Source: Alphaproteobacteria bacterium (GTDB lineage Bacteria; Pseudomonadota; Alphaproteobacteria; Micavibrionales; UBA2020). Taken from it: DNA of 64,000 bases. The position numbers and the translations under genes were made by a program. Below are positions 8,974 to 60,712 of the stretch, one piece after another (position 1 is the stretch's first letter; every line of letters begins with the position of its first letter). Under the pieces are notes generated by a model. That model did not search any database. It had not been told where the DNA came from and worked only from the letters and a program-made list of their open reading frames with translations. Where the stretch lies: contig WGNE01000002.1 of the NCBI GenBank assembly GCA_016124645.1, positions 23,334 to 87,333 on the forward strand, read 5' to 3'.

Positions 8974-8977
8974 CAGC

Positions 8978-9838: not shown

Positions 9839-9862
9839 CCGGAAACCAACAGGAAGAAGACC

Positions 9863-28569: not shown

Positions 28570-29325
28570 GTGTCTGAGCAGCCAAAAAAATATTACGTGC
28601 GCTTTTCCAAGAAAGAAGACGAAGACAGGATTCTCGATTTTTACAGCCTCAACGCCCACCACAACGTGCGCAAGCGCGAAAGCGAGCTGGTGAAGAAAAT
28701 GGCGGATGACGGGGCCGTCGTCCTTATCGAGGACGATGAAGGCACCATCGTCGCCGCCAGCATCACCTACGGCCACAAGGTGAAGGACAAGGACGGCGTC
28801 GAGCATGTGAAATGGCAGGAGATCGGCTCCACCCGCATCGTGCTGAACGGCTATCCCGGCCTGTTCGACGCGATGGTGACGATGCAGACCCTGCGCGCCT
28901 TCCTCGTCGAACCGCCGGAAGACCGCTTCGTCGCGCAGATGCACACCGCGCCCGTGCAGGGCATGGCGGGCAAACTGGGCTGGCGCCCGTTCGAGGCGCC
29001 CGACGAGCTGATCGAGGCGAAGCTGGGCACCGTCGATCCCAACGATTTGAAGGAAGCCTCGCGCGAGCATTTCTACCACTGCGGCGTCGAGGCGCTGCCG
29101 ATGATGGCCGCGCGCATGATGAAGGCGCTGAACGATCCCGTGCTGGAAAACAAGAAGACCGGCGAGAAGATCGAGCTGGACTTCAGCAAGTCGAATTTCT
29201 TCACCTTGTTCAAGGACGAGATCCGCAAGCTCGCCGCCAAGGATTACGGCGACGTCGAGAATCCCGACATGAAAGCAAGCGTCAAGGAACGCCGCAATCA
29301 GTGGATGAAGAATTTTTTCCGCTAA
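28570..29325 (+). CDS. GNAT-like acyltransferase-fold protein with C-terminal extension (paralog 1)
   Basis: GTG start. YVRFS...GAVVLIEDDEGTIVAASITY...EIGSTRIVLNGYPGLFDAM...GKLGWRPF fits the GNAT beta-strand/motif A layout. About 40% identical by eye to ORF 35784..36515. Confidence 0.55.
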   Translation: MSEQPKKYYVRFSKKEDEDRILDFYSLNAHHNVRKRESELVKKMADDGAVVLIEDDEGTIVAASITYGHKVKDKDGVEHVKWQEIGSTRIVLNGYPGLFDAMVTMQTLRAFLVEPPEDRFVAQMHTAPVQGMAGKLGWRPFEAPDELIEAKLGTVDPNDLKEASREHFYHCGVEALPMMAARMMKALNDPVLENKKTGEKIELDFSKSNFFTLFKDEIRKLAAKDYGDVENPDMKASVKERRNQWMKNFFR

Positions 29326-31718: not shown

Positions 31719-31750
31719 GCGGAGGGTTTTCACGAACCCTCCGCTTTTTA
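31719..31750 (+). terminator. rho-independent terminator
   Basis: Stem GCGGAGGGTT / AACCCTCCGC (31719-31728 / 31735-31744), followed by TTTTT. The T-run overlaps the stop codon of the convergent ANK gene. Confidence 0.65.
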
Positions 31751-32362
31751 TTTCACGGGTTTCCTGATGCTGATCTTCTTCATCACCGCCACGGGCTTGA
31801 CGGTGGGCAGGCCGGCCTGCAGTTTTCGTTCCAGCGCCTGACGTTTCGCTTCCTTCGCTTCGGCGGCTTCGCGGTCGATGCGGGCGCGTTCTTCGGCCTC
31901 GCGCTTCATCTTGCAGGCGGCGGCGTAGATGTTCAGCTTGTCCGCCAGCCATGAGCGGTTGTTTTCGGTCGCGTAGTCGGCGGCGGTCTTGTTGTCCGGC
32001 GATTTGCGGTCGATGTCCGCGCCGTGGTCGAGCAGCAGGTAGCCCATGTCCTTGTCGCCGAGGTTGGCGGCCCACATCAGCGGGGTCATGCCGTTGCGCG
32101 CGGGGTCGTCGGGCAGGGCGCCCGCCTTCAAAAGGGCTTCGGCCACGCCCTGGTTCTTGCGCAGGACGGCGTGCATCAGCGCGGACGCGCCGTTGCCGTC
32201 CGTCACGCCAAGGTCCGCGCCGCGCGCACAGAGGTCTTTGATCTTCTGCACGTCGGGGGCGGCGCCGGAATTGATGGTTGCGATGACTTCCGCGCCCAGC
32301 TGCTTTGCCAGCGCGGGGTCGATGGCGGCCTTGTTGAAACTGGCGGGCGGTTGTTGCGTCAT
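31748..32362 (-). CDS. ankyrin repeat protein with coiled-coil basic tail
   Basis: Repeats such as GASALMHAVLRKNQGVAEALLKAGALPD and GMTPLMWAANLGDKDMGYLLLDHGADID. The C-terminus is a charged REAEERARIDREAAEAKEAKR helix. Confidence 0.85.
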   Translation of the reverse strand: MTQQPPASFNKAAIDPALAKQLGAEVIATINSGAAPDVQKIKDLCARGADLGVTDGNGASALMHAVLRKNQGVAEALLKAGALPDDPARNGMTPLMWAANLGDKDMGYLLLDHGADIDRKSPDNKTAADYATENNRSWLADKLNIYAAACKMKREAEERARIDREAAEAKEAKRQALERKLQAGLPTVKPVAVMKKISIRKPVK

Positions 32363-32475: not shown

Positions 32476-33819
32476 TCAGTTCTTGCGGGCTTTTTTGCGC
32501 GCGGGCCACGGGGCGGGGGCGACGGCGTTTGGCGCGGGGGCGTATTTCAGCCCGTTGCGCTTGCCGATGTGGCGGATGAAGCCCGTCACGCGCGGCGAAA
32601 TCTCGCCCTGCCAGAGCCGCCCGTTGAAGATGCCGTAGTTCCCGGCGCCTTCCTGCAGCAGGTGGTAGTGCATGTTCTTTTTCAGCCCGCCGCACATGAC
32701 GTGGCCCGCCACCGTCTGGCCGGGGGCGGAGATGTCGTCCTTCTCGCCCTCGATGGTGAACATCGCGGTCTTGGTGACGGCCTGCAGATTGACGCGCTGC
32801 CCGCGCCATTCCAGCACGCCGCGCGCCAGCTCGTTGCGGATGAAGATGCGGTCCACGGTGTCGAGGTAGAATTCCGCCGGAATGTCGCAGACGGCAAGGT
32901 ATTCGTCGTAGAACTTCTTCAGCTTGCCCGCCTTTTCGTGCTCGCCGTTGATCATGGTGCGGAACATGTCGAAGTGGGAGGAAACGTGCTTGCGCCGGTT
33001 CATCTCGATGAAGCTGAGCAGCTGCATGAAGCCGGGATAGACGAGGCGGCCGGCGCCCCTGTATTTCAGCGGCACGCTGGCGATGAGGTTTTCGCGGAAC
33101 CAGCCGAGGTGCTTCTGGTCGGCGAAGCTGGTGACCTTGGTTTCCGCCGCCTGCGGGTTGAGCGGCCCGCCCATCAGCGTCATGGAAAGCGGCTGCGCGG
33201 GCGATTTTTCCGCCGCCAGCAGCGCGGTCGCGATCATGACCGGCACGGTCGGCTGGCACACGGCCATGACGTGCAATTTGGGCCCCAGCGCCTCGATGAA
33301 TTCCTTGACGTAGGCGACGTAGTCGTCCAGCCCGAAGGGGCCGGCGGACATGGGCACGTCGCGCGCGTCCAGCCAGTCGGTGATATAGACGTCGTGCGCG
33401 GGCAGCATCTGCGCCACCGTGTCGCGCAGCAGCGTCGCGTGGTGGCCGGACATGGGAGCCACGATGAGCAGCTTCGGGTCGTTGCGCCGCGTTTCGCGCT
33501 TGAAGTGCAGCAGGTGGCAGAAGGGTTTTTCGAGGATCGTTTCCTCCTGCACGGAAACCTTCTTGCCCGCGATCTCCACCTGGTGCAGGCCGAAGGCGGG
33601 CTTGACGTAGGCCTTGGCGAAGCGGTGGGTCATTTCGTGCGTGGCGAAGAGGTAGTCCTTCACCATCGAGGCATAGGGCAGGTTGAAGGTGCAAAGCTCG
33701 GCCATGCTGGCGAGGGTCGAATGCAGGTGAAGCCCGGCCCTTAAGGTCTTGAAGAAGGTATTGAGGCCGTAGCGTTGGGCCTCATGGGCGGGGTAGAGCA
33801 GCGCGTTATGTCTTTTCAT
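32476..33819 (-). CDS. phaZ: intracellular polyhydroxyalkanoate (PHB) depolymerase PhaZ, copy 1
   Basis: 447 aa. LYPAHEAQR..., KPAFGL..., PFCHLLHFKRE, LIVAPMSGHHATLLR, AVCQPTVP and FTIEGEKDDISAPGQT match my memory of the intracellular PhaZ family. Confidence 0.88.
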   Translation of the reverse strand: MKRHNALLYPAHEAQRYGLNTFFKTLRAGLHLHSTLASMAELCTFNLPYASMVKDYLFATHEMTHRFAKAYVKPAFGLHQVEIAGKKVSVQEETILEKPFCHLLHFKRETRRNDPKLLIVAPMSGHHATLLRDTVAQMLPAHDVYITDWLDARDVPMSAGPFGLDDYVAYVKEFIEALGPKLHVMAVCQPTVPVMIATALLAAEKSPAQPLSMTLMGGPLNPQAAETKVTSFADQKHLGWFRENLIASVPLKYRGAGRLVYPGFMQLLSFIEMNRRKHVSSHFDMFRTMINGEHEKAGKLKKFYDEYLAVCDIPAEFYLDTVDRIFIRNELARGVLEWRGQRVNLQAVTKTAMFTIEGEKDDISAPGQTVAGHVMCGGLKKNMHYHLLQEGAGNYGIFNGRLWQGEISPRVTGFIRHIGKRNGLKYAPAPNAVAPAPWPARKKARKN

Positions 33820-33961
33820 GACACTCTTTTTTTTGTCTTGGGCTTCTTTTTGTTTTTCTTATCAGCCTGATAGCGTTACCGGATACAGCCGTGCAGCTAA
33901 TATGCACCCATATGCATATAATTCAAATAGTTATATTTTTTCCGAAATCCAGAGAGGGAGG

Positions 33962-35332
33962 TCAGGCGGCGGGCTTGCGGCGGCGGGGTTTCTTGTCCGG
34001 CGCGGCGGGCGGCGCATAGGCCTCGGGCGCGATCGCGTTGTTGGGGGCGGTATAGGCGAGGCCGCGGCGCTTGCCGGTCTCGCGGATGAAGCCGGTGATG
34101 CGCGGCGCGATTTCCTCGCGCCAGTGATGGCCGTTGAAGATGCCGTAATGCCCGGCATCCGGCTGCAGGTAGTGGAAGCGGCTGCCCGCCGCGATGTTCT
34201 TGCACATGCCCCGCACGGCCAGCGTCTGGCCGGGGGCGGAGATATCGTCCTTCTCGCCCTCGACGGTGAAAAGCGCGGTCTGGCGTATGGCGGCGGGATC
34301 GACCTTGTCGCCGTGGTGCGTCAGCAGCCCGCGCGGCAATTCGTGGTCGATGAAGACCTTCTTGACGGTCTCGAGGTAGAACTTGGCGGGCAGGTCGCAG
34401 ACGGCGAGGTATTCGTCGTAGAAATCCTTAATTTTCTCAGCCTTTTCGCGGTTGCCCTTCATCAGGGAATTGAACATGTCGATATGCGATTGCGCGTGCT
34501 TTTCGGGGTTCATCGACATGAAGCTGAAAAGCTGCACAAAGCCGGGATAGACGAGGCGGCCGCGCCCTTCGTATTTCTCCGGCACCTTGCCGATGAGGTT
34601 TTCCTCGAACCAGTCAATATCCTTGCTTTCCGCGAGCTTGGTGACTTCCGTTGAAGCGGCGCGCGTATCCAGCGGCCCGCCCATCAGCGTCATGGAAAGG
34701 GGCTGGCAGTCGGATTTCTCTTCCGCGAGGCGGGAGACGGCGGCCAGCACCGGCACGGTCGGCTGGCACACGGCCATGACATGGGTTTCGGGCCCGACGG
34801 CCTTGATGAATTCCTTCACATAGTCGATGTAATCGTCTAATCCGAAATCACCTTTTTCCATCGAGACGTCGCGCGCGTCCTTCCAGTCTGTGATATAGAC
34901 GTCGTGATCGGGCAGCAGGGCGGCGACGGTGTCGCGCAGCAGCGTCGCGTGGTGGCCCGACATGGGCGCGACCAGCAGCACCTTGGGATCGTTGCGATCC
35001 GTCTCGCGTTTGAAATGAACAAGCTTGCCGAAATCTTTGTCTTTAATCGTTTCTTCGGTCACGCGGACGGTCTTTCCGCCGGTCTCCGTCGTGTCCAGCC
35101 CGAAGGCGGGCTTGGTGTATTCCTTGGCGAAGCGCTCGGTCATTTCCTCGGCGGCGGTCAGGAAGTTCTTGGTCAGCTCGGCATAGGGCTTGGGCGCAAA
35201 ACCGTACATCTCCGCCATGCTCACCACGGCGGTCTGGAAATTCAGCCCGGCGGCGAGGGCGTTGAAATAGGTCTTGATGCCTGAACGCTGCGCCTCGTGC
35301 GCGGGGTAGAGAATGGGGTTATGTTTTGTCAT
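33962..35332 (-). CDS. phaZ: intracellular polyhydroxyalkanoate (PHB) depolymerase PhaZ, copy 2
   Basis: 456 aa, collinear with copy 1 over its whole length (LYPAHEAQR, LLVAPMSGHHATLLR, AVCQPTVP, FTVEGEKDDISAPGQT). Confidence 0.88.
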   Translation of the reverse strand: MTKHNPILYPAHEAQRSGIKTYFNALAAGLNFQTAVVSMAEMYGFAPKPYAELTKNFLTAAEEMTERFAKEYTKPAFGLDTTETGGKTVRVTEETIKDKDFGKLVHFKRETDRNDPKVLLVAPMSGHHATLLRDTVAALLPDHDVYITDWKDARDVSMEKGDFGLDDYIDYVKEFIKAVGPETHVMAVCQPTVPVLAAVSRLAEEKSDCQPLSMTLMGGPLDTRAASTEVTKLAESKDIDWFEENLIGKVPEKYEGRGRLVYPGFVQLFSFMSMNPEKHAQSHIDMFNSLMKGNREKAEKIKDFYDEYLAVCDLPAKFYLETVKKVFIDHELPRGLLTHHGDKVDPAAIRQTALFTVEGEKDDISAPGQTLAVRGMCKNIAAGSRFHYLQPDAGHYGIFNGHHWREEIAPRITGFIRETGKRRGLAYTAPNNAIAPEAYAPPAAPDKKPRRRKPAA

Positions 35333-35783: not shown

Positions 35784-36515
35784 ATGGCCAAGAAATTATA
35801 CGTCCGCTTCTCCACCGCGCAGGACGAGCAGAAAATCTTCGATTATTACACGGAGAACGAGCACGAGTTCGTCGCCAAGCGCGACCCCGAGATCTGGAAG
35901 GAGCGCATCTCCTCCGGCGCGGTCACGCTCATCGAGGACGAGCAGGGCAAGATCGTCGCCTCCAGCATTTCCTATCCGCTGATGACCAAGGACGCGGACG
36001 GCAACGACGCGCATACATGGTCCGAGATCGGCTCCGTGCGCGTGACGCTGGACGGCATCGGGCTGTTCAAGACGCTGATGGCCGCGCATGTCATGCGCTC
36101 CTACATGCTGGAACCGCCCGACGACCGCTTCGCCATCGAAATCGTCATCGGCAACGAGCATTCCAAGCACGTCTTCCTGAAGGAAGGCGCGACCCCGTGG
36201 CAGATTCCCGACGAGCTGCGCAAGCTGGTCGAGGACACCATGTCGCCCGATGACGACACGGGCGCGGTCGAATGGTTCCAGCTCGGCGTGGAGGCCATGC
36301 CGCATTTCGCCCAGCAGCTTTTGAAGCAGGAGGCCAACCCCAAGCTCGTCAACAAGAAGACCGGCGAGGAATACGAGCTGGACTTCAGCAAATGCGTGCT
36401 CACCACCACGCTGCGCGACCAGCTTGAAAAACTGTCCGGCCTCGACTTCGGCGACAAGGCCAAGCCGCAGATGAAGCACGGGCTGAAGAAATTCCGGGAC
36501 AAGTTCAACCCGTAA
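35784..36515 (+). CDS. GNAT-like acyltransferase-fold protein with C-terminal extension (paralog 2)
   Basis: YVRFS...GAVTLIEDEQGKIVASSISY...EIGSVRVTLDGIGLFKTLM...NEHSKHVFLKEGATPW. Collinear with ORF 28570..29325, including the C-terminal NKKTGEE-x-ELDFSK block. Confidence 0.55.
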   Translation: MAKKLYVRFSTAQDEQKIFDYYTENEHEFVAKRDPEIWKERISSGAVTLIEDEQGKIVASSISYPLMTKDADGNDAHTWSEIGSVRVTLDGIGLFKTLMAAHVMRSYMLEPPDDRFAIEIVIGNEHSKHVFLKEGATPWQIPDELRKLVEDTMSPDDDTGAVEWFQLGVEAMPHFAQQLLKQEANPKLVNKKTGEEYELDFSKCVLTTTLRDQLEKLSGLDFGDKAKPQMKHGLKKFRDKFNP

Positions 36516-44122: not shown

Positions 44123-45402
44123 TTTTTGAACATTTTCGGCATGTCCTGCCAGCAGGCGTGATAGTCGCCCTGCAACCCGTTGTTCAGCGCGAATTTCGTG
44201 GGGCGCATGACGAAGCGGCTTTCGAACATGAAGGCGAGCGTGTTTTTCAGGTACTCGGGCTTCAGGTCGGCGTTCATGGCCTTGTCGAGCACGGCGCTGT
44301 CCGGCCCGTGGGCGCTCATGCAGTTGTGCAGGGAATAGCCGCCGGGGGTGAAGCCGCCTTTTTCCTTCGCGTCATAAACGCCGTGGATGAGCCCCATGAA
44401 CTCGCTCATGATGTTGCGGTGGAAATAGGGCGGGCGGAAGGTATGCTCGGCCACCATCCAGCGCGGCGGGAAGATGACGAAATCCACGTTCGCCACGCCC
44501 GGCGTGCCCGAGGGCGAGGTCAGCACGGTGAAGATGGAGGGGTCCGCATGGTCGAAGCTGACGGTGTTGATGGTCATGAATTCGGCAAGGTCGTATTTGT
44601 AAGGCGCGCAATTGCCGTGCCAGCCCACGACGTCGAGCGGCGAATGGTCGATCTTCGCCTGCCATAGCGCGCCGTCGAACTTGGCGATGAGGGTGAAGTC
44701 GCCCGCCTTGTCCTCGTATGCCGCGACCGGATAGAGGAAGTGGCGCGGATAGGCCAATCCGTTGGAACCGATGGGGCCGAGGTCGGGCAGGGTGAAGGGC
44801 GCGCCGTGGTTTTCGCAGACGTAGCCACGCGCCTGACCGTCATCCAGATCGACGGCGAAGCGCACGCCGCGCGGGATGACGGCGATCTCGCCGGGTTTGG
44901 CCTGCAGCACGCCCATTTCCGTGCGGAAGGTCAGCGCGCCCTGCTGGGGCACGAAAAGCATTTCGCCGTCCGCGCTGTAGAAATAGCGTCCGTCCATGTT
45001 CGCGTTGGCGGCATAGATATGCACCGAAAGACCTGCCCAGCTGTGCGCGTCGCCGCCGCAGGCGATCGTGCGCATCCCGTCGATGATGTCGGCCTTGCCG
45101 TCGGGCGCGGGCATGGGGTCCCAGCGCATCTGGTCGGGGGAAGCGTTCGCGCCGTTCTCGCTCAAAAAGCTGTCGTGCTTGTAGCGCGTGAAGGCCTGCT
45201 GCCTGACCGAGGGCAGGATGCGGTACAGCCACGTGCGCAGCTGGTTTTTCTGCGGCACGGTGAAGGCGCTGCCGCTCAGCTGTTCGGCGTAAAGGCCGAG
45301 GGCGGGTTTCTGCGGCGAGTTCTGCCCCTTGGGCAGCGCGCCCTTTTCGGCTTCGGTTTCAAAGGTGTTGCCGAAGCCGGACTGGTACTGCACGGCGGTC
45401 AT
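44119..45402 (-). CDS. hmgA: homogentisate 1,2-dioxygenase
   Basis: [27 protein letters not shown]...[13 protein letters not shown]-terminus and a 427-aa cupin body typical of HmgA. Confidence 0.95.
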
Positions 45403-45406
45403 GGTT

Positions 45407-46495
45407 TTACGATGCCGCCTTTTTGGATTTCGCGTCCTCGGGCTTCAGCACGCCGCGGCGGATCTGGTCTTCCTCAAGGGATTCGAACAGCGCCTGGAAA
45501 TTGCCTTCGCCGAAGCCTTCGTTGCCCTTGCGTTGGATGATTTCGTAGAAGATGGGGCCGATGGCGTCCTTGGTGAAGATCTGCAAAAGCAGGCCTTGCC
45601 CCTCGGTCGGCGCGCCGTCCACGAGGATGTTGAGCGCCTGCATTTCCTTCAGGTCCTCGCCGTGGCCGGGCACGCGGGTATCGACTTTTTCGTAGTAGGT
45701 GCCGGGCGTTTCCTGGAAGTCGATGCCGGTTTTTTCCAGCGCGCGCACGGTGTCGTAAATGCCCGCGGTGCCCAGCGCGATGTGCTGGATGCCTTCGCCC
45801 GCGTAGCGTTTCAGGAATTCCTCGATCTGCGACTTGTCGTCGGAGGATTCGTTGATGGGAATGCGGATCTTGCCGCAGGGGCTGGTCATGGCCTTGGACT
45901 TCAGGCCGGTCAGCTTGCCTTCGATGTCGAAGTAGCGGATCTCGCGGAAGTTGAACAGGTCGGTGTAGAAATCCGCCCATTTCGCCATGTTGCCGCGGTT
46001 CACGTTGTGGGTGAGGTGGTCGATGTAGGTGAGGCCCGCGCCGGGGTTGGGCGCCTTGTCGATGATGTCGAAATCGACCTCATAGATGGAGCCCTTGTCG
46101 CCGTAGCGATCGACGAGGTAGAGGACGGAGCCGCCGATGCCCTCGATGGCGGGGATGGTCAGCTCGCCGGGGCCGACCTTGCCGGTCACTTCCTTCACGC
46201 CTTTTTCCTTCGCATGGGCCAGCGCCTTGGCCGCGTCCTTCACGCGGAAGGCCATCGCCATCGCGCCGCCGGCGTTGTTGCGCGCCTTGGCGAATTCCAG
46301 CGCCTCGGGCTCGGCGTTGAGGATGAAGTTGATGTCGCCCTGCTGCCAGAGCGTGACCTTCTTGGACTTGTGAACGCCGGTTTTCTTGAAGCCGAGGCTG
46401 GTGAACAGGGTTTCAAGCTCTTGCGGGTTGGTGTGGCAATACTCGACGAACTCGAAGCCGTCGGTGCCCATCGGGTTTTCAAACAGGTCGGCCAT
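45407..46495 (-). CDS. hppD: 4-hydroxyphenylpyruvate dioxygenase
   Basis: [19 protein letters not shown]..., GIQHIAL and QIFT...[10 protein letters not shown]...[14 protein letters not shown] motifs. 362 aa. Confidence 0.95.
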
Positions 46496-50229: not shown

Positions 50230-50757
50230 TTATTCGCCGGAATCGTCCGACCCGGTGTTGGTGTTGCCGCCGTCGCGGTGGCGGTTCAGCCATTCATGGC
50301 GCCGCTGGTTGCGGTCCTGATGGCGGTCCATGCGGTCGGTGTGGCGCTCGCGCCAGTCCTGGCGGCGGTCGCGGCGGTCGTGGTGCATGTCCTTCTGGTC
50401 ATGCCCCCAGTCGCGGCGGTCCTGATGCATGTCCTTTTTGTCGCCGTGCATGTCTTTCTTGTCGCCGCGCCACTCTTTGCGGTCGTCGTGCATGGCGTCC
50501 TTGTCGCCGTCCTTGCGGTCATCGCGCCAGTCCTTGCGGTCGTCGTGCAGGTCCTTCTTGTCGCCGCGCACGTCGCGCTTGTCGCTGCGCCAGTCCTGGC
50601 GGTCGTCGCGCATGTCGCGGTGGTCGCTGCGCATGTCGCGGTTGTCGCGGTGGATCTCGCGGCTGTCGTGTCGCATATGATGGTTTTCCTGCGCGAGGGC
50701 GAGGCCGGGAAGCATGACGGCCGCCGTCAGCATGGAAAGGAAGGTTGCTTTTTTCAT
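50230..50757 (-). CDS. secreted heptad-repeat protein rich in Asp/Arg/Lys/His with one Met/Trp per repeat
   Basis: I place the start at MKKATFLSMLTAAVMLPGLALA (signal peptide). The mature region is ~14 tandem heptads such as KKDMHGD, RKDWRDD, RRDWGHD, QKDMHHD. AGGAGA Shine-Dalgarno sequence upstream. Confidence 0.65.
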   Translation of the reverse strand: MKKATFLSMLTAAVMLPGLALAQENHHMRHDSREIHRDNRDMRSDHRDMRDDRQDWRSDKRDVRGDKKDLHDDRKDWRDDRKDGDKDAMHDDRKEWRGDKKDMHGDKKDMHQDRRDWGHDQKDMHHDRRDRRQDWRERHTDRMDRHQDRNQRRHEWLNRHRDGGNTNTGSDDSGE

Positions 50758-51192
50758 GTCGGTATCTCCTGTAAAATTTTCAAAACCAAATCCGTTTGAT
50801 GCGGCGGAGGACGCCCGGGGAAGACGCGGGGTTTTTCCGCACATACTTAAATTATACAGGGATGATGAAAGCCCGGCCATGCGGTAAATTTTTTTTATTT
50901 TCTTCGCGCAGGGTATTTCGTTTCATCCGTATCAGAGACAGCGGCATCTTTCGACCGGACGCAGCCCAGCCATGGGCCGCGCCGTTTTTCGTGCGCGCGT
51001 TTCGGGAAAATTCAGGGAGGAAATCCGGGAGAAAATTAAGGTTGTCTTAACCTCAGGCGGCCCGCTCCCGGCGACAAGATCGTGGGCATGATCTTGCCGG
51101 CTTGCCGGTTGGCGCGGCGACGCCTCGGGGGAGAACGTCGGCGGTGCGCCAGCGGCACAACAGTCCGGGAGCAGGCACCCTGGTGCAGACGG

Positions 51193-51781: not shown

Positions 51782-53077
51782 ATGAACCGCCTGCGCTATA
51801 ATGACGGTTTGGGCCTTCAACAGGTATTTTCCATGGTTCAACTGGCACCGGACAGCTTTTCGACCGTCAAGACCATCGTCGCCTACGGGATCTTCGCGGC
51901 GAGCTACGTCGTCTTCGCCATCGGGCGCTTTCCGGGCATGAAGATCGACCGGCCGGGCGCGGCCATCATCGGCGCGGTGCTGATGTTCGCCTTCGGCATC
52001 ATGCCGCCGCACGGCGCGCTCAACGTCATCGACTTTTCCACGCTCGTGCTGTTGTTCTCCATGATGCTCATCGTTTCCTGCCTGCACCAGGCGGGGTTCT
52101 TCGACTGGGTCACGCATCTCATCGCCACGCATTTGAAGCCGCAGCAGCTTTTGCCGACGGTGATCTTCACCTCCGGCATTCTCTCCGCCTTCCTCGTCAA
52201 CGACATCATCTGCCTTGCGATGGTGCCGCTGGTGCTTTCCGCCACGCGGCGGTTGCGGGTGAAGCCGCTGCCCTATTTGCTGGCGGTGGCGACGGCCTCG
52301 AACATCGGCAGCGTGGCGACGATCACCGGCAACCCGCAGAACATCCTCGTCGGCGCCTATTCGGGCATCCATTATGCCGCCTTCATGGCGAAGCTGGGGC
52401 CCGTCGCTGTCATCGGGCTGTTCATCGACTGGGCGGTCATCCACTTCATCTTCCGCAAGACCAACGGCGCGACGGCGGCGGCGGAGGCGCTCGAACCCTC
52501 GAAGCCGGTCGATATATCCGGCCTCGCCAAGCCGCTCATCGTGACCGTCATCGTGCTGGCGGGCTTCCTGCTGGGCGTGCAGCCGGCGATGATGGCGGCG
52601 CTGGGCGCGGCGGTCATGCTCATCAGCCGCACGCGCGAGCCGCGCAAGGTCTATGAGGGCGTGGACTGGGGGCTGCTGATTTTCTTCACCGGGCTTTTCG
52701 TCATCATCGGCGGGGTGGAGAAGGCGGGCATCGGCGCCTATATGCACCATCTCGACGCAAGCTGGAACCTGCACATCCCCGTCGTCTTCGCCGGGGTGAT
52801 GACGGTTGTCTCAAGCCTCGTCGGCAACGTGCCGGCGGTGATGCTGGTGCGCAAGACGATGGAATCCTTCCCCGACCCGCAGGCGGGCTGGCTTTTGCTG
52901 GCCATGGCCACGACGCTGTCGGGCAACCTCGTCATCACGGCCTCGGTCGCGAACATCATCGTGGTCGAGCAGGCGCGCAAGGAAACGCCGATCACTTTCC
53001 TCGACTACCTCAAGGTCGGCCTGCCGGTCACGATTTTGACCCTCGCCGTGGGGCTGCTCTGGCTGCGCTACGTGTAA
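51782..53077 (+). CDS. anion permease of the ArsB/NhaD superfamily (YbiR-like)
   Basis: About 12-TM, 431-aa protein. The motifs LSAFLVNDIICLAMVP and ATASNIGSVATITGNPQN are typical of this family. The start may be the Met at 51833. Confidence 0.75.
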   Translation: MNRLRYNDGLGLQQVFSMVQLAPDSFSTVKTIVAYGIFAASYVVFAIGRFPGMKIDRPGAAIIGAVLMFAFGIMPPHGALNVIDFSTLVLLFSMMLIVSCLHQAGFFDWVTHLIATHLKPQQLLPTVIFTSGILSAFLVNDIICLAMVPLVLSATRRLRVKPLPYLLAVATASNIGSVATITGNPQNILVGAYSGIHYAAFMAKLGPVAVIGLFIDWAVIHFIFRKTNGATAAAEALEPSKPVDISGLAKPLIVTVIVLAGFLLGVQPAMMAALGAAVMLISRTREPRKVYEGVDWGLLIFFTGLFVIIGGVEKAGIGAYMHHLDASWNLHIPVVFAGVMTVVSSLVGNVPAVMLVRKTMESFPDPQAGWLLLAMATTLSGNLVITASVANIIVVEQARKETPITFLDYLKVGLPVTILTLAVGLLWLRYV

Positions 53078-53481
53078 GCGGGGTTTTCGCGGGAACGCGC
53101 GTCGCCAAAATTTTTTTTCGGGTTTTCTTCTTTTTCCGCCGGATGCCGCGCGCAATCCCCGCGCGAAAAAGGTTAAGTTTTCGTTAACCGCAGGTCGCGT
53201 CAAATCTATCATGCGTTTAGCGCGCCGCGCTGATGCGAAACAGGAAAGAAACAGGATGCAGAAAGGGTTAGCGCACCGCGCGCGATAGATTGCTTTTACC
53301 TACAATTTAATCTTTCCTTAACCCTTTCTAAACATTTTATTCTTTACATAGAACGGGGTTGGTGTACAATTAAAGAATAGCCGAAATCTGTCTCGTCGGG
53401 AGTATGTCGGGATGTGTGTGACGGCTTGTATGAGATTGCATTATTATCTCCGATTTTGTGTGGTGTGGGGGGTACGAAAAT

Positions 53482-56436
53482 ATGTCGAACGATCATTCTT
53501 CCAAAAAAGTGACGGTCACGTCCGGTTTGGCTTTTGCCTTGCTGCCGCAGTTCAAGTACAGCTTGGCGGGGCTGAAGGAACTTGTCCCCCTCTTCAGAAT
53601 TACGCTGGCCATCGTGCTGAGCCATGCGAAGCTTATTCGCAAGGATCACCCCGTCCTGACGGACAGGCATAGCGCCACCATCGCCGACCTTATGGGCGAA
53701 GCCTGGTACACGCTGCGCACCACACGCGCGACGACCACGCAATGGGGCGTCTTTTCATCCATCGTCGTTTTCTCCAGCCTCATGATCTCCGCCGTCGGCA
53801 TGCTCGTTTTGCGGGTCGGTCTCGGCGTGGGCGAAGTCGCGCACGCGCAACTGTTTTCCGCGGCGAACGACCCCTACGGCAACGGCGGGGATACATCCAT
53901 TACCGGCGGCGTGCAAAACCTTGCGTCCCCGGGCACGACCGTCCTGTTCGATTCACGCGTGCAGAACGGCGCGACCTCGGATTCCGCCAAGGATTACGCA
54001 ATGATGCTGCTTGACAAGGTTCTCCGCCAGGCGGCGGGCAACCAGAACGGCGGCACCATGCAAAACGCGCTGGCGAGCCTGATGGAGGTTTACAACAGCG
54101 CCGTGCTGATCATCGCCAGCGTGATCATCTTCTGGATGATCATGTCCGTGGTCGTGGACACCGCCAAGACCGGCACCATCGGCGGCGGCCGCCACAACAT
54201 GGTCTGGGCGCCGATCCGCGTGGTCTTCGCGCTGGGCATCATGATTCCGCTGGGCTCGCAGGGCTTCAGCTCCGGCCAGTACATGGTCATGAAGCTTGCC
54301 GAATGGGGTTCCAACCTCGGCTCGCGCGCATGGTTCACCTATATCCAGAAGGTCGTGACCGGGCCGAGCGGCGACAGCATGCTCGCGGGCTACAGCGCGC
54401 AGAACGTGACCAACATCGTCGATGGCATTTCGCACACGCTGGCCTGCCAGGTGACGTACAACGCCTTCACCAAGCAGTCGCTTTCGCCGGATACGCCGGC
54501 GCCGAAAGACCTCGTGATGCCTTCCGCCCTGTCGTATGACAGCATGACGGGCCGGCATATGTACACCTATACGACGGCGTCCGAGAACAACATGTGCGGC
54601 CAGATTTCCTACAGGGACACGGCGCCCTCGGCTCCCAGTGCCGACTATACGTACCCGGCATACGTGACGGGTCTCGGCGGCACGACGACGCCCGTCGCTG
54701 CGGCCGCGCCTGATTTCGCGACCTATAACAGGAACGTGGTCGCGGCCATCACGGGCGACCCGTGGTTCATCCAGAACATCAACAACTTCAACAATTCCAT
54801 GTCCGCGGCCCTTGCCGCGCAGGTGGCGCCGGGCGGTCCTGCGCTCATGAAGGCGTATGAATTCGCCTGCACCTTCGTCGCAAGACGCTTCAACGACGGG
54901 AATAAAGGCGTGACGGAAGCGGACAACCCGGTTTCGAAACTGACCAACCCCGCGGCCGACGGCGCCAACTGCAACGGCAAGCTCGACCTGTGCGGCGGTA
55001 CTTACGACGCCGCGACGGGTAAAGACCCGAACGACAGCTGCCAGCAGGCCATGGTGGGGATGCTGCAAGACGCCATGAGGGGTGCGTATGACACGAACGC
55101 GACCCAGCTTGACGCGGCCATCATGACCGGCGTGCTGAACGAGAACAAGGCACGCGGCTGGGCCAACATGGGCTTGTTCTTCGCTGAAATCTCGGCGATC
55201 AACGTCCAGCTCCAAAGCGCCATCCACCCGGATGTCAAAATCACCCCGGGTGCGGCATGGGAGCAGGCGACCTGCGGCTTCTTCAAAGGCATCGGCAACT
55301 GGTTTGCCAACCTGGTCCGCGCGAAAGACCAGGATTGCGTGACCGACCTTCAAAAGCAGATGAACACGGTCATGGCCGACTACAGCCGGTGGTGGGATTA
55401 TACCTCCGCGCACCCGGGCTCCACGCCGACGGACCCGATGAAGACGGTGACGGAAGGCAAGAACATCACCCCGTCCACCAGCGCGAAAGACAGCGGCGGC
55501 GGCAGCTCGACCGACGGCAAGGTCATGGACATCATCACGTCCATCATTCCGAAGACGCCGTCGCCCTTCATCGGTCTGGCGCAGCCTGTTGACGGTACCA
55601 AAACGGGTTCTTTCCCGATGGCGGAACTGTCCAACGTCGGCACGAGCCTGATCTGGTCGGGCATCGGCATCGAAGTCGCCTCCACGGTGGCCCAGATGCT
55701 TGCGGGTGCGACGGTTGAAGTGCTCGGTATCGGCGGCAGCCTCGGCGGCGGCGGTGCCTTCATCTTCCAGACCTTCGACTCGGTCGCAAACGCCATGATC
55801 ATGGCCGGTATGGTGCTGCTCTTCTGGCTGCCTGCCATGCCTGCCATCCGCGTGGCCTTCGCGACGCTGACCTGGATCACGGCCGTATTCCTCGCCGTCT
55901 CCATGGTGCCGATCGCGGCGCTGGCTCACCTGACCTCCGAAGGCGAAGGCCTGTCGGGCGGTGCGCGCGTCGCCTGGGTGCTGTGGCTCAACATCCTGCT
56001 GCGGCCGGTGCTTGTGGTCCTCGGGTTCGTGGGCGCGGTGCTGGTCTATAACTCCTTCGCCGTTTACTTCAACTCCATGTTCGGTGGCGTTGCGGGTATG
56101 GTGATGGACCAGGGCAATGGTATCTTCTCCTTCATCGGCATGTTCGCCTATACCGCGATCTATGTCATGGTCCTCTACACGGCCGCCAACTCCAGCTTCA
56201 AGATGATGGACTTGATGGCCGACGGCATGATGACCTGGATGGGCGCCGGCGCAGCTGCTCACAGCTTCGACGACAACCATGGCGCCGCACACGGCGTGAT
56301 GAGCCAGGCGGGCGGCATGATGGCGGGTATGGCCATCGGCAGCCAGGGCAGACGGCAGGCTACCGGTATGGCCGGTATCGGAGCCGCCAAAGCGCTCAGG
56401 AACAAAAATGCTACACCTGCCGATCCTCCGAAGTGA
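53482..56436 (+). CDS. DotA/TraY-like polytopic inner-membrane protein (type IVB secretion component homolog)
   Basis: I place the start at MSNDH (GGGGGG lies 8-13 nt upstream). YNSAVL...TAKTGTIGGGRHNMVWAPIRVVFALGIMIPLGSQGFSSGQYMVM and AALAHLTSEGEGLSGGARVAWVLWLNILLRPVLVVLGF resemble the two conserved DotA/TraY blocks as I remember them. A Cys-containing ~430-aa central loop is followed by a C-terminal TM bundle. That it is a real CDS is near certain; the family call is moderate. Confidence 0.6.
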   Translation: MSNDHSSKKVTVTSGLAFALLPQFKYSLAGLKELVPLFRITLAIVLSHAKLIRKDHPVLTDRHSATIADLMGEAWYTLRTTRATTTQWGVFSSIVVFSSLMISAVGMLVLRVGLGVGEVAHAQLFSAANDPYGNGGDTSITGGVQNLASPGTTVLFDSRVQNGATSDSAKDYAMMLLDKVLRQAAGNQNGGTMQNALASLMEVYNSAVLIIASVIIFWMIMSVVVDTAKTGTIGGGRHNMVWAPIRVVFALGIMIPLGSQGFSSGQYMVMKLAEWGSNLGSRAWFTYIQKVVTGPSGDSMLAGYSAQNVTNIVDGISHTLACQVTYNAFTKQSLSPDTPAPKDLVMPSALSYDSMTGRHMYTYTTASENNMCGQISYRDTAPSAPSADYTYPAYVTGLGGTTTPVAAAAPDFATYNRNVVAAITGDPWFIQNINNFNNSMSAALAAQVAPGGPALMKAYEFACTFVARRFNDGNKGVTEADNPVSKLTNPAADGANCNGKLDLCGGTYDAATGKDPNDSCQQAMVGMLQDAMRGAYDTNATQLDAAIMTGVLNENKARGWANMGLFFAEISAINVQLQSAIHPDVKITPGAAWEQATCGFFKGIGNWFANLVRAKDQDCVTDLQKQMNTVMADYSRWWDYTSAHPGSTPTDPMKTVTEGKNITPSTSAKDSGGGSSTDGKVMDIITSIIPKTPSPFIGLAQPVDGTKTGSFPMAELSNVGTSLIWSGIGIEVASTVAQMLAGATVEVLGIGGSLGGGGAFIFQTFDSVANAMIMAGMVLLFWLPAMPAIRVAFATLTWITAVFLAVSMVPIAALAHLTSEGEGLSGGARVAWVLWLNILLRPVLVVLGFVGAVLVYNSFAVYFNSMFGGVAGMVMDQGNGIFSFIGMFAYTAIYVMVLYTAANSSFKMMDLMADGMMTWMGAGAAAHSFDDNHGAAHGVMSQAGGMMAGMAIGSQGRRQATGMAGIGAAKALRNKNATPADPPK

Positions 56437-56456
56437 TGATCGCCAACCAAACAAAA

Positions 56457-56487
56457 GGGGCGGGAATTCATTTCCCGCCCTTTTTTG
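56457..56487 (+). terminator. rho-independent terminator after the DotA-like gene
   Basis: Stem GGGCGGGAA / TTCCCGCCC (56458-56466 / 56472-56480), followed by TTTTTT. Confidence 0.7.
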
Positions 56488-56579
56488 TTGCCCGTATCCA
56501 GCCCTGATGCTTACGGAAGGGCTTGGTGCCGAAGCCGCTTTCCATTAAAAAGAAACCAGAGGAAGGCGGATAAAGGTTT

Positions 56580-58361
56580 ATGTCAATCAAGACAAAAGCG
56601 CCCGTATTATATGCCGTGTTGCTGCTGGCGGTTTTTCTGTCGCTGGCGCCGCTGGCCTATGCCTTCGACATTCCGGGATTTTCCCCCGGCGATGCCGTGA
56701 AGCTCGTGACCGTGCCGCCGTCGCCCAAGCTGGAAAAGCAGCTGAAGGACATGCTGGCCGAAAACCGCGCGCAGAATGAGGAGGCGGGGTTCCGCCAACC
56801 GCCGCCGCGCCGCGCCCGCGCGGAGGAGGAGCTGATCGGCCGCCTGATGCGGGCCGAGGGCTATTACGACGCGACCGCGCAATTCGCCATCGACCACCGC
56901 GTCGTCTCCTATACCGTCACGACGGGTGCGCCCTTCATCGTCACCGTGCTGAAAATAGACACGCCGAAAGGCGTGAAGCTGCCGCGCCGCCTGCACCTCG
57001 CCCAGCGCAAGAACAAGCCGCTGCGGGCCGAGGACGTGCAGAAAAGCCTCGACCGGCTGACGGAGGCGGTGCAGAAGAACAATTGCCTCTACGACGTGTC
57101 GGTCAGCTACGACGCGCGCATCAACCGCGACAACCACACGGCGCGCCTGACCCTGACGGTGAAAAAAAGCGCGAAGGCGAAGGTGGGGCGCGTCCGCTTC
57201 AAGGGGCTCGGCAGGGTGAAGGAAGACTACGCGCTGCAAAAGACGGAGCTGCAGCCGGGCGCCTGCTTCAACCGCGCCGCCGTCGATCAGGCGCGGCTCA
57301 ATCTCCTGCAGTCCAACCTTTTCGCCAGCGTGACGGACGAGGTGGCGCCGCTGAAACGCGGCAAGGCCGACGTGACCTTCAGCCTGCGCCCCCGGCCGCC
57401 GCATACCATCACGGCCGGGGCGGGCTACAGCTCGGACGAGGGGCCGAACGTCTCCGCGGGCTGGGAGCATCGCAACCTTTTCGGCCGCGGCGAAAAGCTG
57501 GACCTCGGCGCGCAGTGGTCGGCGATTTTGCAGGGGGTGAATTCTAGCCTGACGTTTCCCGACTTCCACCGCAAGGACCAGAGCCTGACCCTGACCGGCG
57601 ATGTTTCCAAGACCAATTCCGACGCCTACGACACCCGGGCCCTGACGCTGGGGGCGACGGTCACGCGCAAGCTTTCGGACCACCTCAGCGCCTCGCTCGG
57701 CACGGGGCTCAAGGTCTCGCGCGAGACGGGGGGCACGGCGAGCAACGACACGGTGGGGCTCGTCTTCTTCCCCGCCAGCCTTACCTATGACAGCCGCAAC
57801 GATTTGCTGGACCCCAAAAGCGGCTGGACGGGCACGGCGGGGCTGAAGCCCTTCATCGACAGTTTCGACACCGGCACGGCCTTCCTGAAAAGCACGCTGA
57901 CGGCCAGCGGTTATTACTCGCCGCGTTTCGTGCGCCACAAGCGCCTGACCTTCGCCGCGCGCGCGGGACTGGGCAGCATCAGCGGCATCAGCCTGAACGC
58001 CGTGCCGCTGGACGAGCGCTTTTATGCGGGCGGCGGCGGCTCGGTGCGCGGCTATCCCTACCAGCAGCTCAGCCCGCTGAAGGGAAGTACGCCGGACGGC
58101 GGCCGCTCCTATATCGAAACCTCTTTCGAGACGCGCTACCGCTTCACGCATGACTGGGGCGCCGTGCTGTTCACGGACGGCGGGGCGGCGGCGGTCAGCA
58201 GCATTCCGCGCACCGGCGAGATGCGCTGGGCCGTGGGGGCGGGGGCGCGTTATTATACGGACTTCGCGCCCATCCGCTTCGACGTCGCCGTGCCGCTGGC
58301 GCGCCGCACGGGCATCGACCACAACTATGAATTCTACATCAGCATCGGCCAGGCCTTCTGA
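56580..58361 (+). CDS. tamA: translocation and assembly module outer-membrane protein TamA (Omp85 family)
   Basis: Signal peptide, POTRA-like N-terminal region, and a C-terminal beta-barrel ending in YISIGQAF (terminal Phe). Its stop overlaps the tamB start. Confidence 0.8.
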   Translation: MSIKTKAPVLYAVLLLAVFLSLAPLAYAFDIPGFSPGDAVKLVTVPPSPKLEKQLKDMLAENRAQNEEAGFRQPPPRRARAEEELIGRLMRAEGYYDATAQFAIDHRVVSYTVTTGAPFIVTVLKIDTPKGVKLPRRLHLAQRKNKPLRAEDVQKSLDRLTEAVQKNNCLYDVSVSYDARINRDNHTARLTLTVKKSAKAKVGRVRFKGLGRVKEDYALQKTELQPGACFNRAAVDQARLNLLQSNLFASVTDEVAPLKRGKADVTFSLRPRPPHTITAGAGYSSDEGPNVSAGWEHRNLFGRGEKLDLGAQWSAILQGVNSSLTFPDFHRKDQSLTLTGDVSKTNSDAYDTRALTLGATVTRKLSDHLSASLGTGLKVSRETGGTASNDTVGLVFFPASLTYDSRNDLLDPKSGWTGTAGLKPFIDSFDTGTAFLKSTLTASGYYSPRFVRHKRLTFAARAGLGSISGISLNAVPLDERFYAGGGGSVRGYPYQQLSPLKGSTPDGGRSYIETSFETRYRFTHDWGAVLFTDGGAAAVSSIPRTGEMRWAVGAGARYYTDFAPIRFDVAVPLARRTGIDHNYEFYISIGQAF

Positions 58362-60712
58362 TGGCGAAGGAAAAGAAAACAAAGGAAAGGCCCGAAAAGA
58401 AACCCGCGAAGAAGGCGGGCGGGAGGCGGCCGCGCCGCTGGGGCGGCCGGTTGCTGCGCTGGCTGGCGCATCTTTCCGCCAGCGGGGCGGGTTTCGCCAT
58501 TCTGGGCGCGCTGGCCGTGGTCGTCATGGCGGGCACGCCCGCCGGGCGGATGACTTTGCTGCGCGGCTTCATCGTGCCGGTGCTCTCGGCCGGGGGTGTG
58601 CATGTCTCGTGGCAGAAGATCGAGACGCCGGATGCGCGGCACTGGCATTTGACCGAACTGAAAATCGCCATTCCCGAAGCCCATGTGAAGCTTTCCGTGA
58701 AGGACGCGGCGGCGGAATTCGACTATCACGCCCTGCTTCTGGGGCGGCTGGGCGTGCCGGGCGTGACGCTCAAGGGCATATCCTCCGGCGACGCGCCGCC
58801 CGAAGCGCTGGCGGCGAAGACGGTATTCACCGCGCTGGGCGTGCTGGACATGGCGGGGCAGGGGACGGACCTCAAGATATCGACGAAAGACGTGCCTTTG
58901 CAGCTGCTGGCCGCGCTCGGCGGGTTTCCCGTGCCGGAGAACCTCGGCGGCACGCTGAACGGCGACGTTTCCCTCGTCGGCGACGGGGTGAACGTCAACG
59001 GGCTGACGCTCGCGCTGAAGGACAAGCGGGTGCAGCCGGTCATCCGGGGCAAGGCGAGAAGCGCGGAGATCGGCACCGTCACCCTTGCCGGGCTTTACGG
59101 GCCGCAGGGCTTCGATATGAACCTGAAGACGGAAAAGCTTTCCGCCGCGCTTTTGCAGCTGATGGATATCGGCATCTCTTCCGGCACGATGGGGGCGGAT
59201 ATCGCCCTGAAAGGCACGGCGGAACACCCGCTGCTCTCGGGCGGCTTTTCCTATGACGAGCGCCCGCACCGCCGCCGCGCCGCCATCCGCCTCGCCGGGA
59301 AGATCGCCACCGAAAACGATATCGTAACCGTCGATACCGCACTCAGCCAGTCGGGCGGGAAGGCCGGCGGCGCCCTGCGCCTCGCCGTTCCCCTGACGGG
59401 CAAGCTTTCCGCGAAGCTGTCGGGCAGGCTCGACCTCTCCTTCCTGCGCTTCGTCCTTGATCCCTTCGAGCACAAGCTGAGCGGCGCGCTGACCCTCGAC
59501 CTCGCGGTCTCGGGCGACAGGGCGCATCCCGCCCTGAACGGCACATTGGCCATCGCGAAAGGTTTCTACGACAATGTCGTCAGCGGCACGACGCTCAGCG
59601 ACATCAACATCCTCCTGCGCGCGAGCGGGCAGAAAATCGCCATCGAGAAGGCACAGGCGGGCGACGGGGCGAAAGGGCGGATGAGTCTTTCCGGCGCCTT
59701 CGACTGGGCGGACAAGCCGCTGACGCGCACGCCCGTCAGCCTGACCTTCACCGCCGAGCATGCCCAACTCCTGCGCCGGCGCGACATGTCGGGCAGCGCG
59801 ACGGGGGCGTTGCGGCTGGCGGGCACGCTGAAGGGCATGACGCTTTCCGGCACGCTGGAGGTTTCGCCCTTCACCATGTCGCTCGACGCGTTGAAAGCCT
59901 CCTCCATCCCCGAGATCGAGGTGACCGACGCGACCCCCGGCGCGCGGGCGGAAGCGGGAACCGACGGGCGGGACATGATGGCCTTGCTGCCGCCGGTCAT
60001 GACGGACGTGACCATCAATGTTTCCAAGCAGGCCTACCTGCGCGGCATGGGGGTCGATGCGGAGGTCAGCGGCCACGTGCATGTGGGCGGCCCGCTGGCG
60101 CAATCGGACTACAGCGGCAGCTTCAAGACCGTGCGCGGCAGCTGCGAGGTCTTCGGCAAGAAATTCGTCTTGCAGCAAGGACAGGTGGATTTCGAGGGTG
60201 AGGCGATGTCGCTGAACATTTCCGCCCTGCACCACGGGCAAGGCGTGGACACCACGGCCACGATCTCGGGCTCCATGAAAAAGCCCGCGCTCGCGCTCAC
60301 CTCCGTGCCCGCCATGCCGCAGGACGAGATATTGTCGAACCTGCTGTTCGGCAAGTCGGCCAGCACGCTGACGCCGTTTCAGGCCGTGCGGCTGGCGGCG
60401 GCGGTGCAGCAGATGCGCGGCGGCGGCGCGGGCATTTTCGACCCCGTGGGCAGCGTGCGCGACAAGCTGGGGCTCGACAGCCTCTCGGTCGGCAGCGACA
60501 GCACGCCCGACGGCCAGCAGGGTTTTTCCGCCGGCGCGGGCAAATACATCGGCGACAAGGTTTATCTGGAAGTGCAGAAAACGCCCGACCCCACGCATCC
60601 CTTCGAGGCCGACGTGCAGGTGGAGCTGACCCCGCACCTGAACCTGAAGAGCGGTTCCGGCGGACCCACGGGCGCGGGCAACATCGGCCTGCAATGGAAG
60701 AAGGATTACTAA
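58361..60712 (+). CDS. tamB: translocation and assembly module protein TamB (short form, DUF490 C-terminus)
   Basis: N-terminal basic segment plus TM anchor, a repetitive beta-rich body, and a DUF490-like C-terminus (LFGKSASTLTPFQAVRLA...GKYIGDKVYLEV...LQWKKDY). Only 783 aa. Confidence 0.75.
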   Translation: MAKEKKTKERPEKKPAKKAGGRRPRRWGGRLLRWLAHLSASGAGFAILGALAVVVMAGTPAGRMTLLRGFIVPVLSAGGVHVSWQKIETPDARHWHLTELKIAIPEAHVKLSVKDAAAEFDYHALLLGRLGVPGVTLKGISSGDAPPEALAAKTVFTALGVLDMAGQGTDLKISTKDVPLQLLAALGGFPVPENLGGTLNGDVSLVGDGVNVNGLTLALKDKRVQPVIRGKARSAEIGTVTLAGLYGPQGFDMNLKTEKLSAALLQLMDIGISSGTMGADIALKGTAEHPLLSGGFSYDERPHRRRAAIRLAGKIATENDIVTVDTALSQSGGKAGGALRLAVPLTGKLSAKLSGRLDLSFLRFVLDPFEHKLSGALTLDLAVSGDRAHPALNGTLAIAKGFYDNVVSGTTLSDINILLRASGQKIAIEKAQAGDGAKGRMSLSGAFDWADKPLTRTPVSLTFTAEHAQLLRRRDMSGSATGALRLAGTLKGMTLSGTLEVSPFTMSLDALKASSIPEIEVTDATPGARAEAGTDGRDMMALLPPVMTDVTINVSKQAYLRGMGVDAEVSGHVHVGGPLAQSDYSGSFKTVRGSCEVFGKKFVLQQGQVDFEGEAMSLNISALHHGQGVDTTATISGSMKKPALALTSVPAMPQDEILSNLLFGKSASTLTPFQAVRLAAAVQQMRGGGAGIFDPVGSVRDKLGLDSLSVGSDSTPDGQQGFSAGAGKYIGDKVYLEVQKTPDPTHPFEADVQVELTPHLNLKSGSGGPTGAGNIGLQWKKDY

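Follow-up and report, generated by a model that had tools for sequence, protein, structure and literature searches.

An intact, divergent DotA/TraY family protein encoded apart from type IV secretion genes in uncultured Alphaproteobacteria

The closest known counterparts of the protein considered here include DotA of Legionella and the TraY proteins of IncI-type plasmids, which carry mating-pair formation genes of type I (MPF_I). The Legionella dotA gene is linked to icmVWX and, to our knowledge, every characterised DotA/TraY protein works within a secretion system of type IVB (T4BSS). The present analysis concerns a DotA-like gene on the forward strand of contig WGNE01000002.1 (Alphaproteobacteria bacterium, assembly GCA_016124645.1), at 53482..56436 of a 64-kb stretch of DNA that is referred to below as the window. 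A preliminary description of this stretch had taken the product for an orphan DotA/TraY-like membrane protein and had suggested a dispersed or novel DotA-dependent export function. Structural work on Legionella DotA provides the frame for this comparison, having revealed that it forms a pentameric chamber, anchored in the inner membrane and bearing an extended domain rich in disulfides (bioRxiv 10.1101/2025.06.23.660953). In Legionella, DotA and IcmX together have recently been shown to make up a pentameric 'protochannel' by which the translocation of effectors is gated, and the same preprint states that DotA assembly depends on DotG and IcmX (bioRxiv 10.1101/2025.06.23.660953). Host-targeting T4BSSs are placed by a review in Legionellales, Piscirickettsia and some Francisellaceae.

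The window protein is an intact, divergent member of the DotA/TraY family, whose members are VirB6-like channel subunits of the inner membrane in type IVB secretion and IncI-type conjugation machines, and its membership is established by a profile match together with a fold match. The NCBIfam model TIGR04346 (DotA/TraY) matches it with 216.9 bits against a cutoff of 100, the match extending over aa 175-921 of the protein and positions 4-656 of the 656-position profile. The protein is outside the Legionella DotA equivalog, for which model NF033886 gives 127.4 bits, below the 500-bit cutoff. Eight further members of the subfamily, including three tandem paralogues of a single array in one metagenome-assembled genome (MAG) and two long-tailed forms, score 194-252 bits with TIGR04346, all above the cutoff of 100, and 136-164 bits with NF033886, all eight below 500. 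A phmmer search of the sequences in the PDB returned Legionella DotA (9ngy, E 1.8e-12) as the sole match, in two blocks pairing query residues 161-286 with DotA 20-145 and query residues 768-868 with DotA 738-838; the two DotA/TraY motif blocks that the preliminary description had pointed out are real and align to DotA here. An AlphaFold2 monomer model, built with an 85-member alignment as input (pLDDT 77.8, pTM 0.71), was compared with the PDB by Foldseek, and the in-situ DotA chain 9ngy_FP1 was the single significant match (E 4.1e-14, probability 1.00, TM-scores 0.41/0.46, 976 aligned columns), with no other match below E 0.4. Chains of R388 TrwI/VirB6 appeared as sub-threshold echoes (E 0.5-1.1). 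Pfam, which covers the TrbL/VirB6 profiles that had been proposed as alternatives, gave no significant family for the 984-aa protein and only a spurious match to VWA_CoxE (E 0.16). The DotA/TraY call of the preliminary description thus holds by profile and by fold, and no other family matched better.

The family call is not in itself new, the NCBI record MBI1214284.1 being labelled 'DotA/TraY family protein' already. We came across no publication that describes the subfamily or deals with its orphan setting, the N-terminal domain or the tandem arrays. Notable traits of the subfamily are chromosomal location with vertical inheritance, the absence of a linked type IV secretion system (T4SS) gene, an apparently private N-terminal domain and, in some lineages, tandem arrays. 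The automatic label should not be taken as a sign that conjugation takes place or that these genomes encode a T4BSS.

Set beside Legionella DotA (PDB 9ngy/9nh0), the window protein shows the same overall architecture, in which a first transmembrane segment (TM1) is joined by a short loop to TM2 and a large periplasmic domain rich in Cys precedes five long hydrophobic helices, and both proteins carry the blocks NSAVL...W.P.R...IP and P..AL...EG...LRP. The two proteins also differ. Identity in the structural alignment is 15%, and the short signal peptide of Legionella DotA is replaced in the window protein by a conserved 122-aa N-terminal domain ending in AxA/Q. The periplasmic domain comprises ~415 aa in the window protein versus ~530 aa in Legionella DotA, and the 10 Cys of the latter (5 disulfides) compare with 8 in the window protein, 4 of which are invariant or near-invariant in the subfamily. 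Unlike Legionella dotA, the window gene has no T4BSS neighbour. The TraY proteins of IncI-type plasmids, such as Pseudomonas putida pND6-2 and Xanthomonas plasmids, match the same TIGR04346 model and have the two conserved hydrophobic blocks, but they are shorter (~750-780 aa), lack the N-terminal domain and reach no more than ~30% identity with the window protein, over no more than 36% of its length. The traY gene of pND6-2, moreover, lies in a cluster with genes for an IcmO-like coupling protein, a lytic transglycosylase, PilM and a primase, whereas no matches to these lie near the subfamily members.

The coding sequence occupies a plus-strand open reading frame (ORF) at 53458-56436, in which the ATG at 53482 gives a protein of 984 aa; this start is backed by the family N-terminal consensus MSxxKxxK in the 85-member alignment. 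Hydrophobic segments were located at aa 28-52 (weak), 87-120, 196-230 and 239-259, followed by a hydrophilic region to about aa 710 and by C-terminal hydrophobic helices over about aa 712-919, which bears out the earlier picture of a membrane protein of ~985 aa with N-terminal membrane segments, a hydrophilic loop and a C-terminal bundle. The N-terminal domain (aa 1-122; 53482..53847, + strand) consists of conserved helices and the hydrophobic segment aa 87-120, shows a mean majority-residue fraction of ~0.6 over the 85 members and lies outside the TIGR04346 profile. When aa 1-160 were searched by phmmer against 1.84 billion representative proteins, only 81 matches were obtained, most of them proteins of 837-1404 aa that aligned at or near their own N-termini; 11 of the 81 were shorter (103-579 aa) and may be fragments at contig edges. 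This domain of ~120 aa appears, from that search, to be private to the present DotA-like subfamily. Directly after the hydrophobic segment aa 87-120 stands the motif A120-x-A122/Q123 (53839..53850, + strand), with A120 present in 81 of the 85 members and both A122 and Q123 in all of them, and this motif is probably a signal peptidase I site with cleavage after A122.

The best-conserved region of the alignment (0.77) is the first core block of the family (aa 175-293; 54004..54360, + strand), which comprises TM1, a GGGRHNMVW loop, TM2 and an AEWGSN helix and aligns to DotA 20-145. It is followed by the periplasmic extended domain (aa 294-710; 54361..55611, + strand), positioned as is the extended domain of Legionella DotA and mostly modelled with confidence by AlphaFold2. 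All Cys residues of the protein, exactly 8 where at least 8 had been counted before, fall within aa 322-619 of this domain. C322 and C372 are found in all 85 members, C463 in 84, C497 in 82, C504 in 60 and C520 in 59, so that the first four of these are invariant or near-invariant; by analogy with Legionella DotA, we propose that the periplasmic domain is disulfide-stabilised. The C-terminal bundle (aa 711-921; 55612..56244, + strand) contains the EGEGL...LRPVL block, aligns to DotA 738-838 and is modelled as five long hydrophobic helices at residues 712-747, 755-815, 827-877, 880-905 and 908-919. The remaining 63 residues (aa 922-984; 56245..56433, + strand) form a variable tail of low pLDDT and low conservation, in which Gly, Ala and Met make up 51% of positions versus 29% in the whole protein, in agreement with the Gly/Met/Ala-rich tail noted previously. 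The 85-member alignment retains 46 invariant columns, and the pattern of conservation indicates that the subfamily is under strong purifying conservation.

A homology search returned 171 proteins, nearly all from uncultured Alphaproteobacteria, with 2-3 copies on several contigs. A scan of species-representative genomes gave 50 loci, all of them in MAGs and each at most 41% identical to the window protein, whose submitter labels are Alphaproteobacteria, Micavibrio sp., 'Bdellovibrionales', Rhodospirillaceae and Rhodospirillales. Neighbouring ORFs of all loci were clustered, with labels confirmed by precomputed Pfam matches, and some 40 of the 50, which range over 35-62% GC, exhibited a single synteny in which ThrC, DHODH, EAL and HAD hydrolase genes precede one to five DotA-like genes, followed by an oligopeptide ABC transporter and a POR-type oxidoreductase. 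The closest relative of all (56% identity, on the P0002 contig) has the same order of DotA-like gene, tamA, tamB, EamA, Mpo1 and rpsD as the window, and the gene of the next relative (51% identity) adjoins tig-clpP. Judged by these contexts, the subfamily is chromosomal and vertically inherited in uncultured Alphaproteobacteria, Micavibrio-labelled MAGs included. No protein of a cultured Micavibrio was among the matches of a search started from a Micavibrio-labelled MAG protein. M. aeruginosavorus ARL-13 has been reported to be without a T4SS (PMC3189940); the application of that statement to the DotA-like MAGs was dropped, and it is not transferable because there was no cultured Micavibrio homologue and the genome scan gave MAGs only.

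Arrays of 3-5 DotA/TraY paralogues are found at loci L001-L008 and L011-L013 (for example L005 6676-20825 and L002 6605-21026), always between a HAD hydrolase gene and an SBP_bac_5 gene. Their paralogues fall into distinct orthologous size classes of ~1020, 975, 1390 and 1105 aa, and the longest copies differ chiefly at the C-terminus, where a charged tail of 390-570 aa, without any recognised domain, takes the place of the Gly/Ala/Met tail. The complete chromosome OZ257145.1 (3.3 Mb) has four copies in tandem. In Rickettsiales, arrays of rvhB6 genes adjoin other rvh genes. The DotA-like arrays differ in lying among housekeeping genes, and the two proteins belong to different families, RvhB6 to VirB6 of the type IVA system (T4ASS) and the present one to DotA of the T4BSS. 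The likeness consists in a lineage-specific alphaproteobacterial expansion, with 4-5 divergent channel-subunit paralogues bearing large terminal extensions in the case of RvhB6 (PMC8035066) and 3-5 tandem copies with long C-terminal tails among the DotA-like relatives; the window carries one copy. A rough neighbour-joining tree with plasmid TraY as outgroup places the subfamily in one clade and the window protein on a single-copy branch, sister to the tandem-array lineage.

One member departs from the chromosomal setting. Locus L047 encodes an 877-aa member on a plasmid-like contig with RepA, SSB, EptA and a DSP phosphatase, within a tight six-gene operon (7933-13260) in which a 444-aa protein carrying a GFxxxE domain of prepilin type precedes it and four small ORFs flank it. 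No Dot/Icm family was found among the small ORFs around this copy, the only findings being the prepilin-type domain, RepA and SSB. Through L047, the subfamily may be connected with thin-pilus or conjugation modules of the IncI-like kind. The divergent loci L051-L053 were considered as possible T4BSS clusters and set aside, as their neighbours, read from N-termini and not by profile search, are housekeeping genes (hisA, rbfA/truB, dnaG/rpoD/greA and ftsH/glmM).

How such a protein functions apart from the genes that usually accompany it may be explained in several ways. We lean towards the reading that its partner proteins are encoded at unlinked loci, forming a dispersed T4BSS-like apparatus, and consider the chances of this to be about even. 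The protein would be inserted into the membrane by way of the segment aa 87-120 and probably cleaved after A122; TM1, TM2 and the five C-terminal hydrophobic helices would then serve as the inner-membrane anchor, with the disulfide-stabilised periplasmic domain capping the membrane helices, and five subunits, as in Legionella DotA, would form a chamber that provides the inner conduit, or the gate, of a device exporting macromolecules in a contact-dependent manner. We infer pentamer formation, cleavage at A122 and any transported substrate. The core motifs held in common with Legionella DotA are very well conserved, which suggests that the ancestral molecular role has been kept, and the family members characterised so far, as stated above, all function inside a T4BSS. 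Paralogy with terminal extensions is also known from a working T4SS, namely for the 4-5 VirB6 paralogues encoded by rvhB6 in Rickettsiales (PMC8035066). The ankyrin (ANK) repeat proteins without signal peptides that are encoded in the window and near relatives fit, if only weakly, with the genome encoding a translocation system at some locus. The preliminary description had linked these genes to effectors; signal peptides are indeed absent, but the argument is weak because an ANK protein is a self-immunity factor in predatory Bdellovibrio (PMC4686830), and the link was not supported. A T4BSS scattered in this manner would mean that an effector-type or otherwise chromosomal T4BSS exists in Alphaproteobacteria. 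A number of results weigh against unlinked partners, beginning with the window itself, in which ~60 genes were called by third-codon-position GC content (GC3) and annotated with Pfam. No T4SS gene (dot/icm, tra), relaxase or integrase was found among these ORFs, consistent with the earlier claim that no dot/icm, tra or relaxase genes flank the DotA-like gene, and more than 50 relatives show the same isolation. The 15 unannotated window proteins, run as one concatenated query, a format that may lower sensitivity, gave no PDB match at E <= 1 in a set that includes Dot/Icm and VirB components. The MPF_I-typed plasmid pND6-2 was used as a positive control, its traY lying ~18 kb from the gene for the IcmO-like coupling protein in one cluster; a Lichenicola plasmid TraY that had been tried in this role proved to lie in a degraded context among insertion sequence (IS) elements and was replaced. 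Of 25 proteins from the pND6-2 MPF_I cluster searched by tblastn against 940 kb (the window and 53 loci), only TraY matched, so that being a local orphan characterises the subfamily as a whole. Likewise, neither the 64-kb window nor the stretches within ~10 kb at the 53 related loci yielded IcmX/TraW, IcmV/TraX, DotB/C/D, DotO, DotL or the like. In canonical systems dotA or traY sits with icmVWX, traWX or other MPF_I genes; since the gene is so linked there and Legionella DotA needs DotG and IcmX, complete unlinking across an order-level clade would be unusual.

These same absences, which extend over relatives of 35-62% GC, speak for a stand-alone DotA-like channel, freed from the type IVB machine and acting alone or with partners outside the T4SSs as a pentameric pore or scaffold of the inner membrane and periplasm. 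Its N-terminal domain would have been gained and then probably be cleaved off, tandem sets of 3-5 paralogues may form hetero-oligomeric assemblies, and a role in exchange upon contact with prey or host cells is possible. The stable housekeeping synteny implies long vertical inheritance as a single-gene unit, the gene is monocistronic in layout, and the conserved N-terminal domain is without a match elsewhere among the 1.84e9 representative proteins; the subfamily is also remote from both plasmid TraY and the Legionella DotA equivalog. The dependence of Legionella DotA on DotG and IcmX and the confinement of all characterised DotA/TraY proteins to T4BSSs count against such autonomy, as does the very good conservation of the core motifs. 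We regard an exapted channel as a tentative explanation of somewhat less than even probability; were it true, the protein would offer a minimal natural system for the study of DotA channels. Three other explanations together carry very little probability. It is highly unlikely that the gene was left behind, displaced or in decay, by a conjugative (MPF_I) plasmid or an integrative and conjugative element that had inserted into the chromosome, the alternative that the preliminary description had itself raised. Remnant-like genes do exist, given that the Lichenicola traY has no annotated T4SS genes within ~20 kb and that the contig of the L047 member is plasmid-like and also encodes RepA, SSB and a protein of prepilin type. 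The window ORF, however, is intact and host-like in GC and GC3 and has no integrase, IS element or tRNA flanking it, and dozens of MAGs hold its orthologues in a fixed chromosomal synteny. Relatives were absent from the viral contigs searched, and a tblastn search of 72,556 plasmids, on which this candidate was rejected, gave as its best match a TraY of ~28% identity over 36% of the query (E 1e-8). Just as improbable is a functional partnership with the TamA/TamB module (TAM) encoded directly downstream, an adjacency that the preliminary description had noted. The gene order held in common with the 56%-identical relative favours it, but tamA is set apart by a strong terminator hairpin and a gap of 143 nt, the 51%-identical relative stands beside tig-clpP instead, and ~40 other relatives lie between a HAD hydrolase gene and an Opp-type transporter with no tamAB nearby. 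Conserved co-occurrence of the DotA-like gene with tamAB was not seen across the family, the adjacency being limited to the window and the P0002 contig. A TAM partnership is rejected because of the terminator between the genes and the lack of conserved adjacency, and the proximity of the genes is incidental. The faintest probability attaches to a mislabelled VirB6/TrbL-type subunit of a type IVA system. The weak Foldseek matches to R388 TrwI/VirB6 would be in its favour, and DotA has been discussed as the positional counterpart of VirB6 (bioRxiv 10.1101/2025.06.23.660953), but TrbL/VirB6 is among the Pfam families without a significant match and much better matches, extending along the full length, are given by the DotA/TraY profile and the DotA structure, so that VirB6/TrbL identity was rejected at the level of family assignment.

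The flanks of the DotA-like gene suggest that it forms its own transcription unit. The intergenic leader upstream (53078..53481, + strand; 404 nt) is AT-rich, with a GC content of 0.47 against 0.63 in the window, and includes a sigma-70-like promoter candidate, TTTACA-16-TACAAT (53343..53370, + strand), which is a consensus match only, at 10 of 12 positions; three promoter-like sites were seen in 53000-56700 versus 1.1 expected from shuffles. An RNA element in the 404-nt leader was considered and dropped, as the whole 64-kb window, leader included, gave 0 matches to Rfam families. Downstream of the stop codon lies a terminator-like hairpin with a T-run (56458..56489, + strand; hairpin part 56458-56480), formed by GGGCGGGAA...TTCCCGCCC and then TTTTTTGTT, for which RNAfold gives -25.2 kcal/mol. 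The same hairpin was picked up on the minus strand by the pattern scan and may thus be bidirectional. The AT-rich leader and terminator reported earlier were both recovered, as was tamA-tamB at about 140 nt downstream, tamA starting 143 nt after the DotA-like stop and being followed by tamB. With its own promoter-like site and terminator, the DotA-like gene is predicted to be monocistronic. It is also native in composition, because its GC of 0.62 is close to that of the window (0.63) and its GC3 of 0.83 resembles that of neighbouring genes. The tamB gene (58361-60712, + strand), whose start overlaps the tamA stop, encodes a TamB of only 783 aa, compared with 790 aa in the contig of the closest relative; E. 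coli TamB has ~1,260 aa.

The remainder of the window is ordinary chromosome according to Pfam, with ruvCAB, tolQR, tolB, putA, the ATP synthase F0 operon, a tyrosine catabolism cluster and MTHFR. Upstream of the DotA-like gene are genes for CitMHS and a response regulator, and the three genes directly adjoining it on that side gave no meaningful NCBIfam match; tamA, the short tamB, EamA, Mpo1, rpsD and a HAD hydrolase gene are found downstream. The four ANK-repeat genes claimed for the window are real by Pfam. Three are in tandem at 39147-41523 (+) and overlap stop to start, with the gene for an aromatic amino acid hydroxylase dependent on biopterin (37279-38496) on one side and the genes of tyrosine catabolism (41497-46495) on the other; the fourth is at 31748-32362 (-), and none of the four proteins has a signal peptide. 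Related ANK genes (cluster c18) are found near the DotA-like gene at loci L036, L043, L044 and L049. Two tandem paralogous genes for intracellular polyhydroxybutyrate depolymerases of 447 and 456 aa (32476-35332, -) adjoin an ANK gene. Paralogous proteins of 251 and 243 aa without a Pfam match are encoded at 28570-29325 (+) and 35784-36515 (+) and have in common an N-terminal KK-x-YVRFS motif and a C-terminal 'KKTGE.(I/Y)ELDFSK' motif. The ORF at 50230-50880 (-) encodes a protein of 216 aa without a family match, in which a signal-peptide-like N-terminus precedes an extreme His/Arg/Asp/Lys repeat (HRDNRDMRSDHRDMRDDRQDWR...). A DUF559 (endonuclease-like) ORF at 43604-44122 (-) lies inside the run of homogentisate/fumarylacetoacetate catabolic genes and, with a GC3 of 0.68, below that of its neighbours, may be a small mobile insertion.

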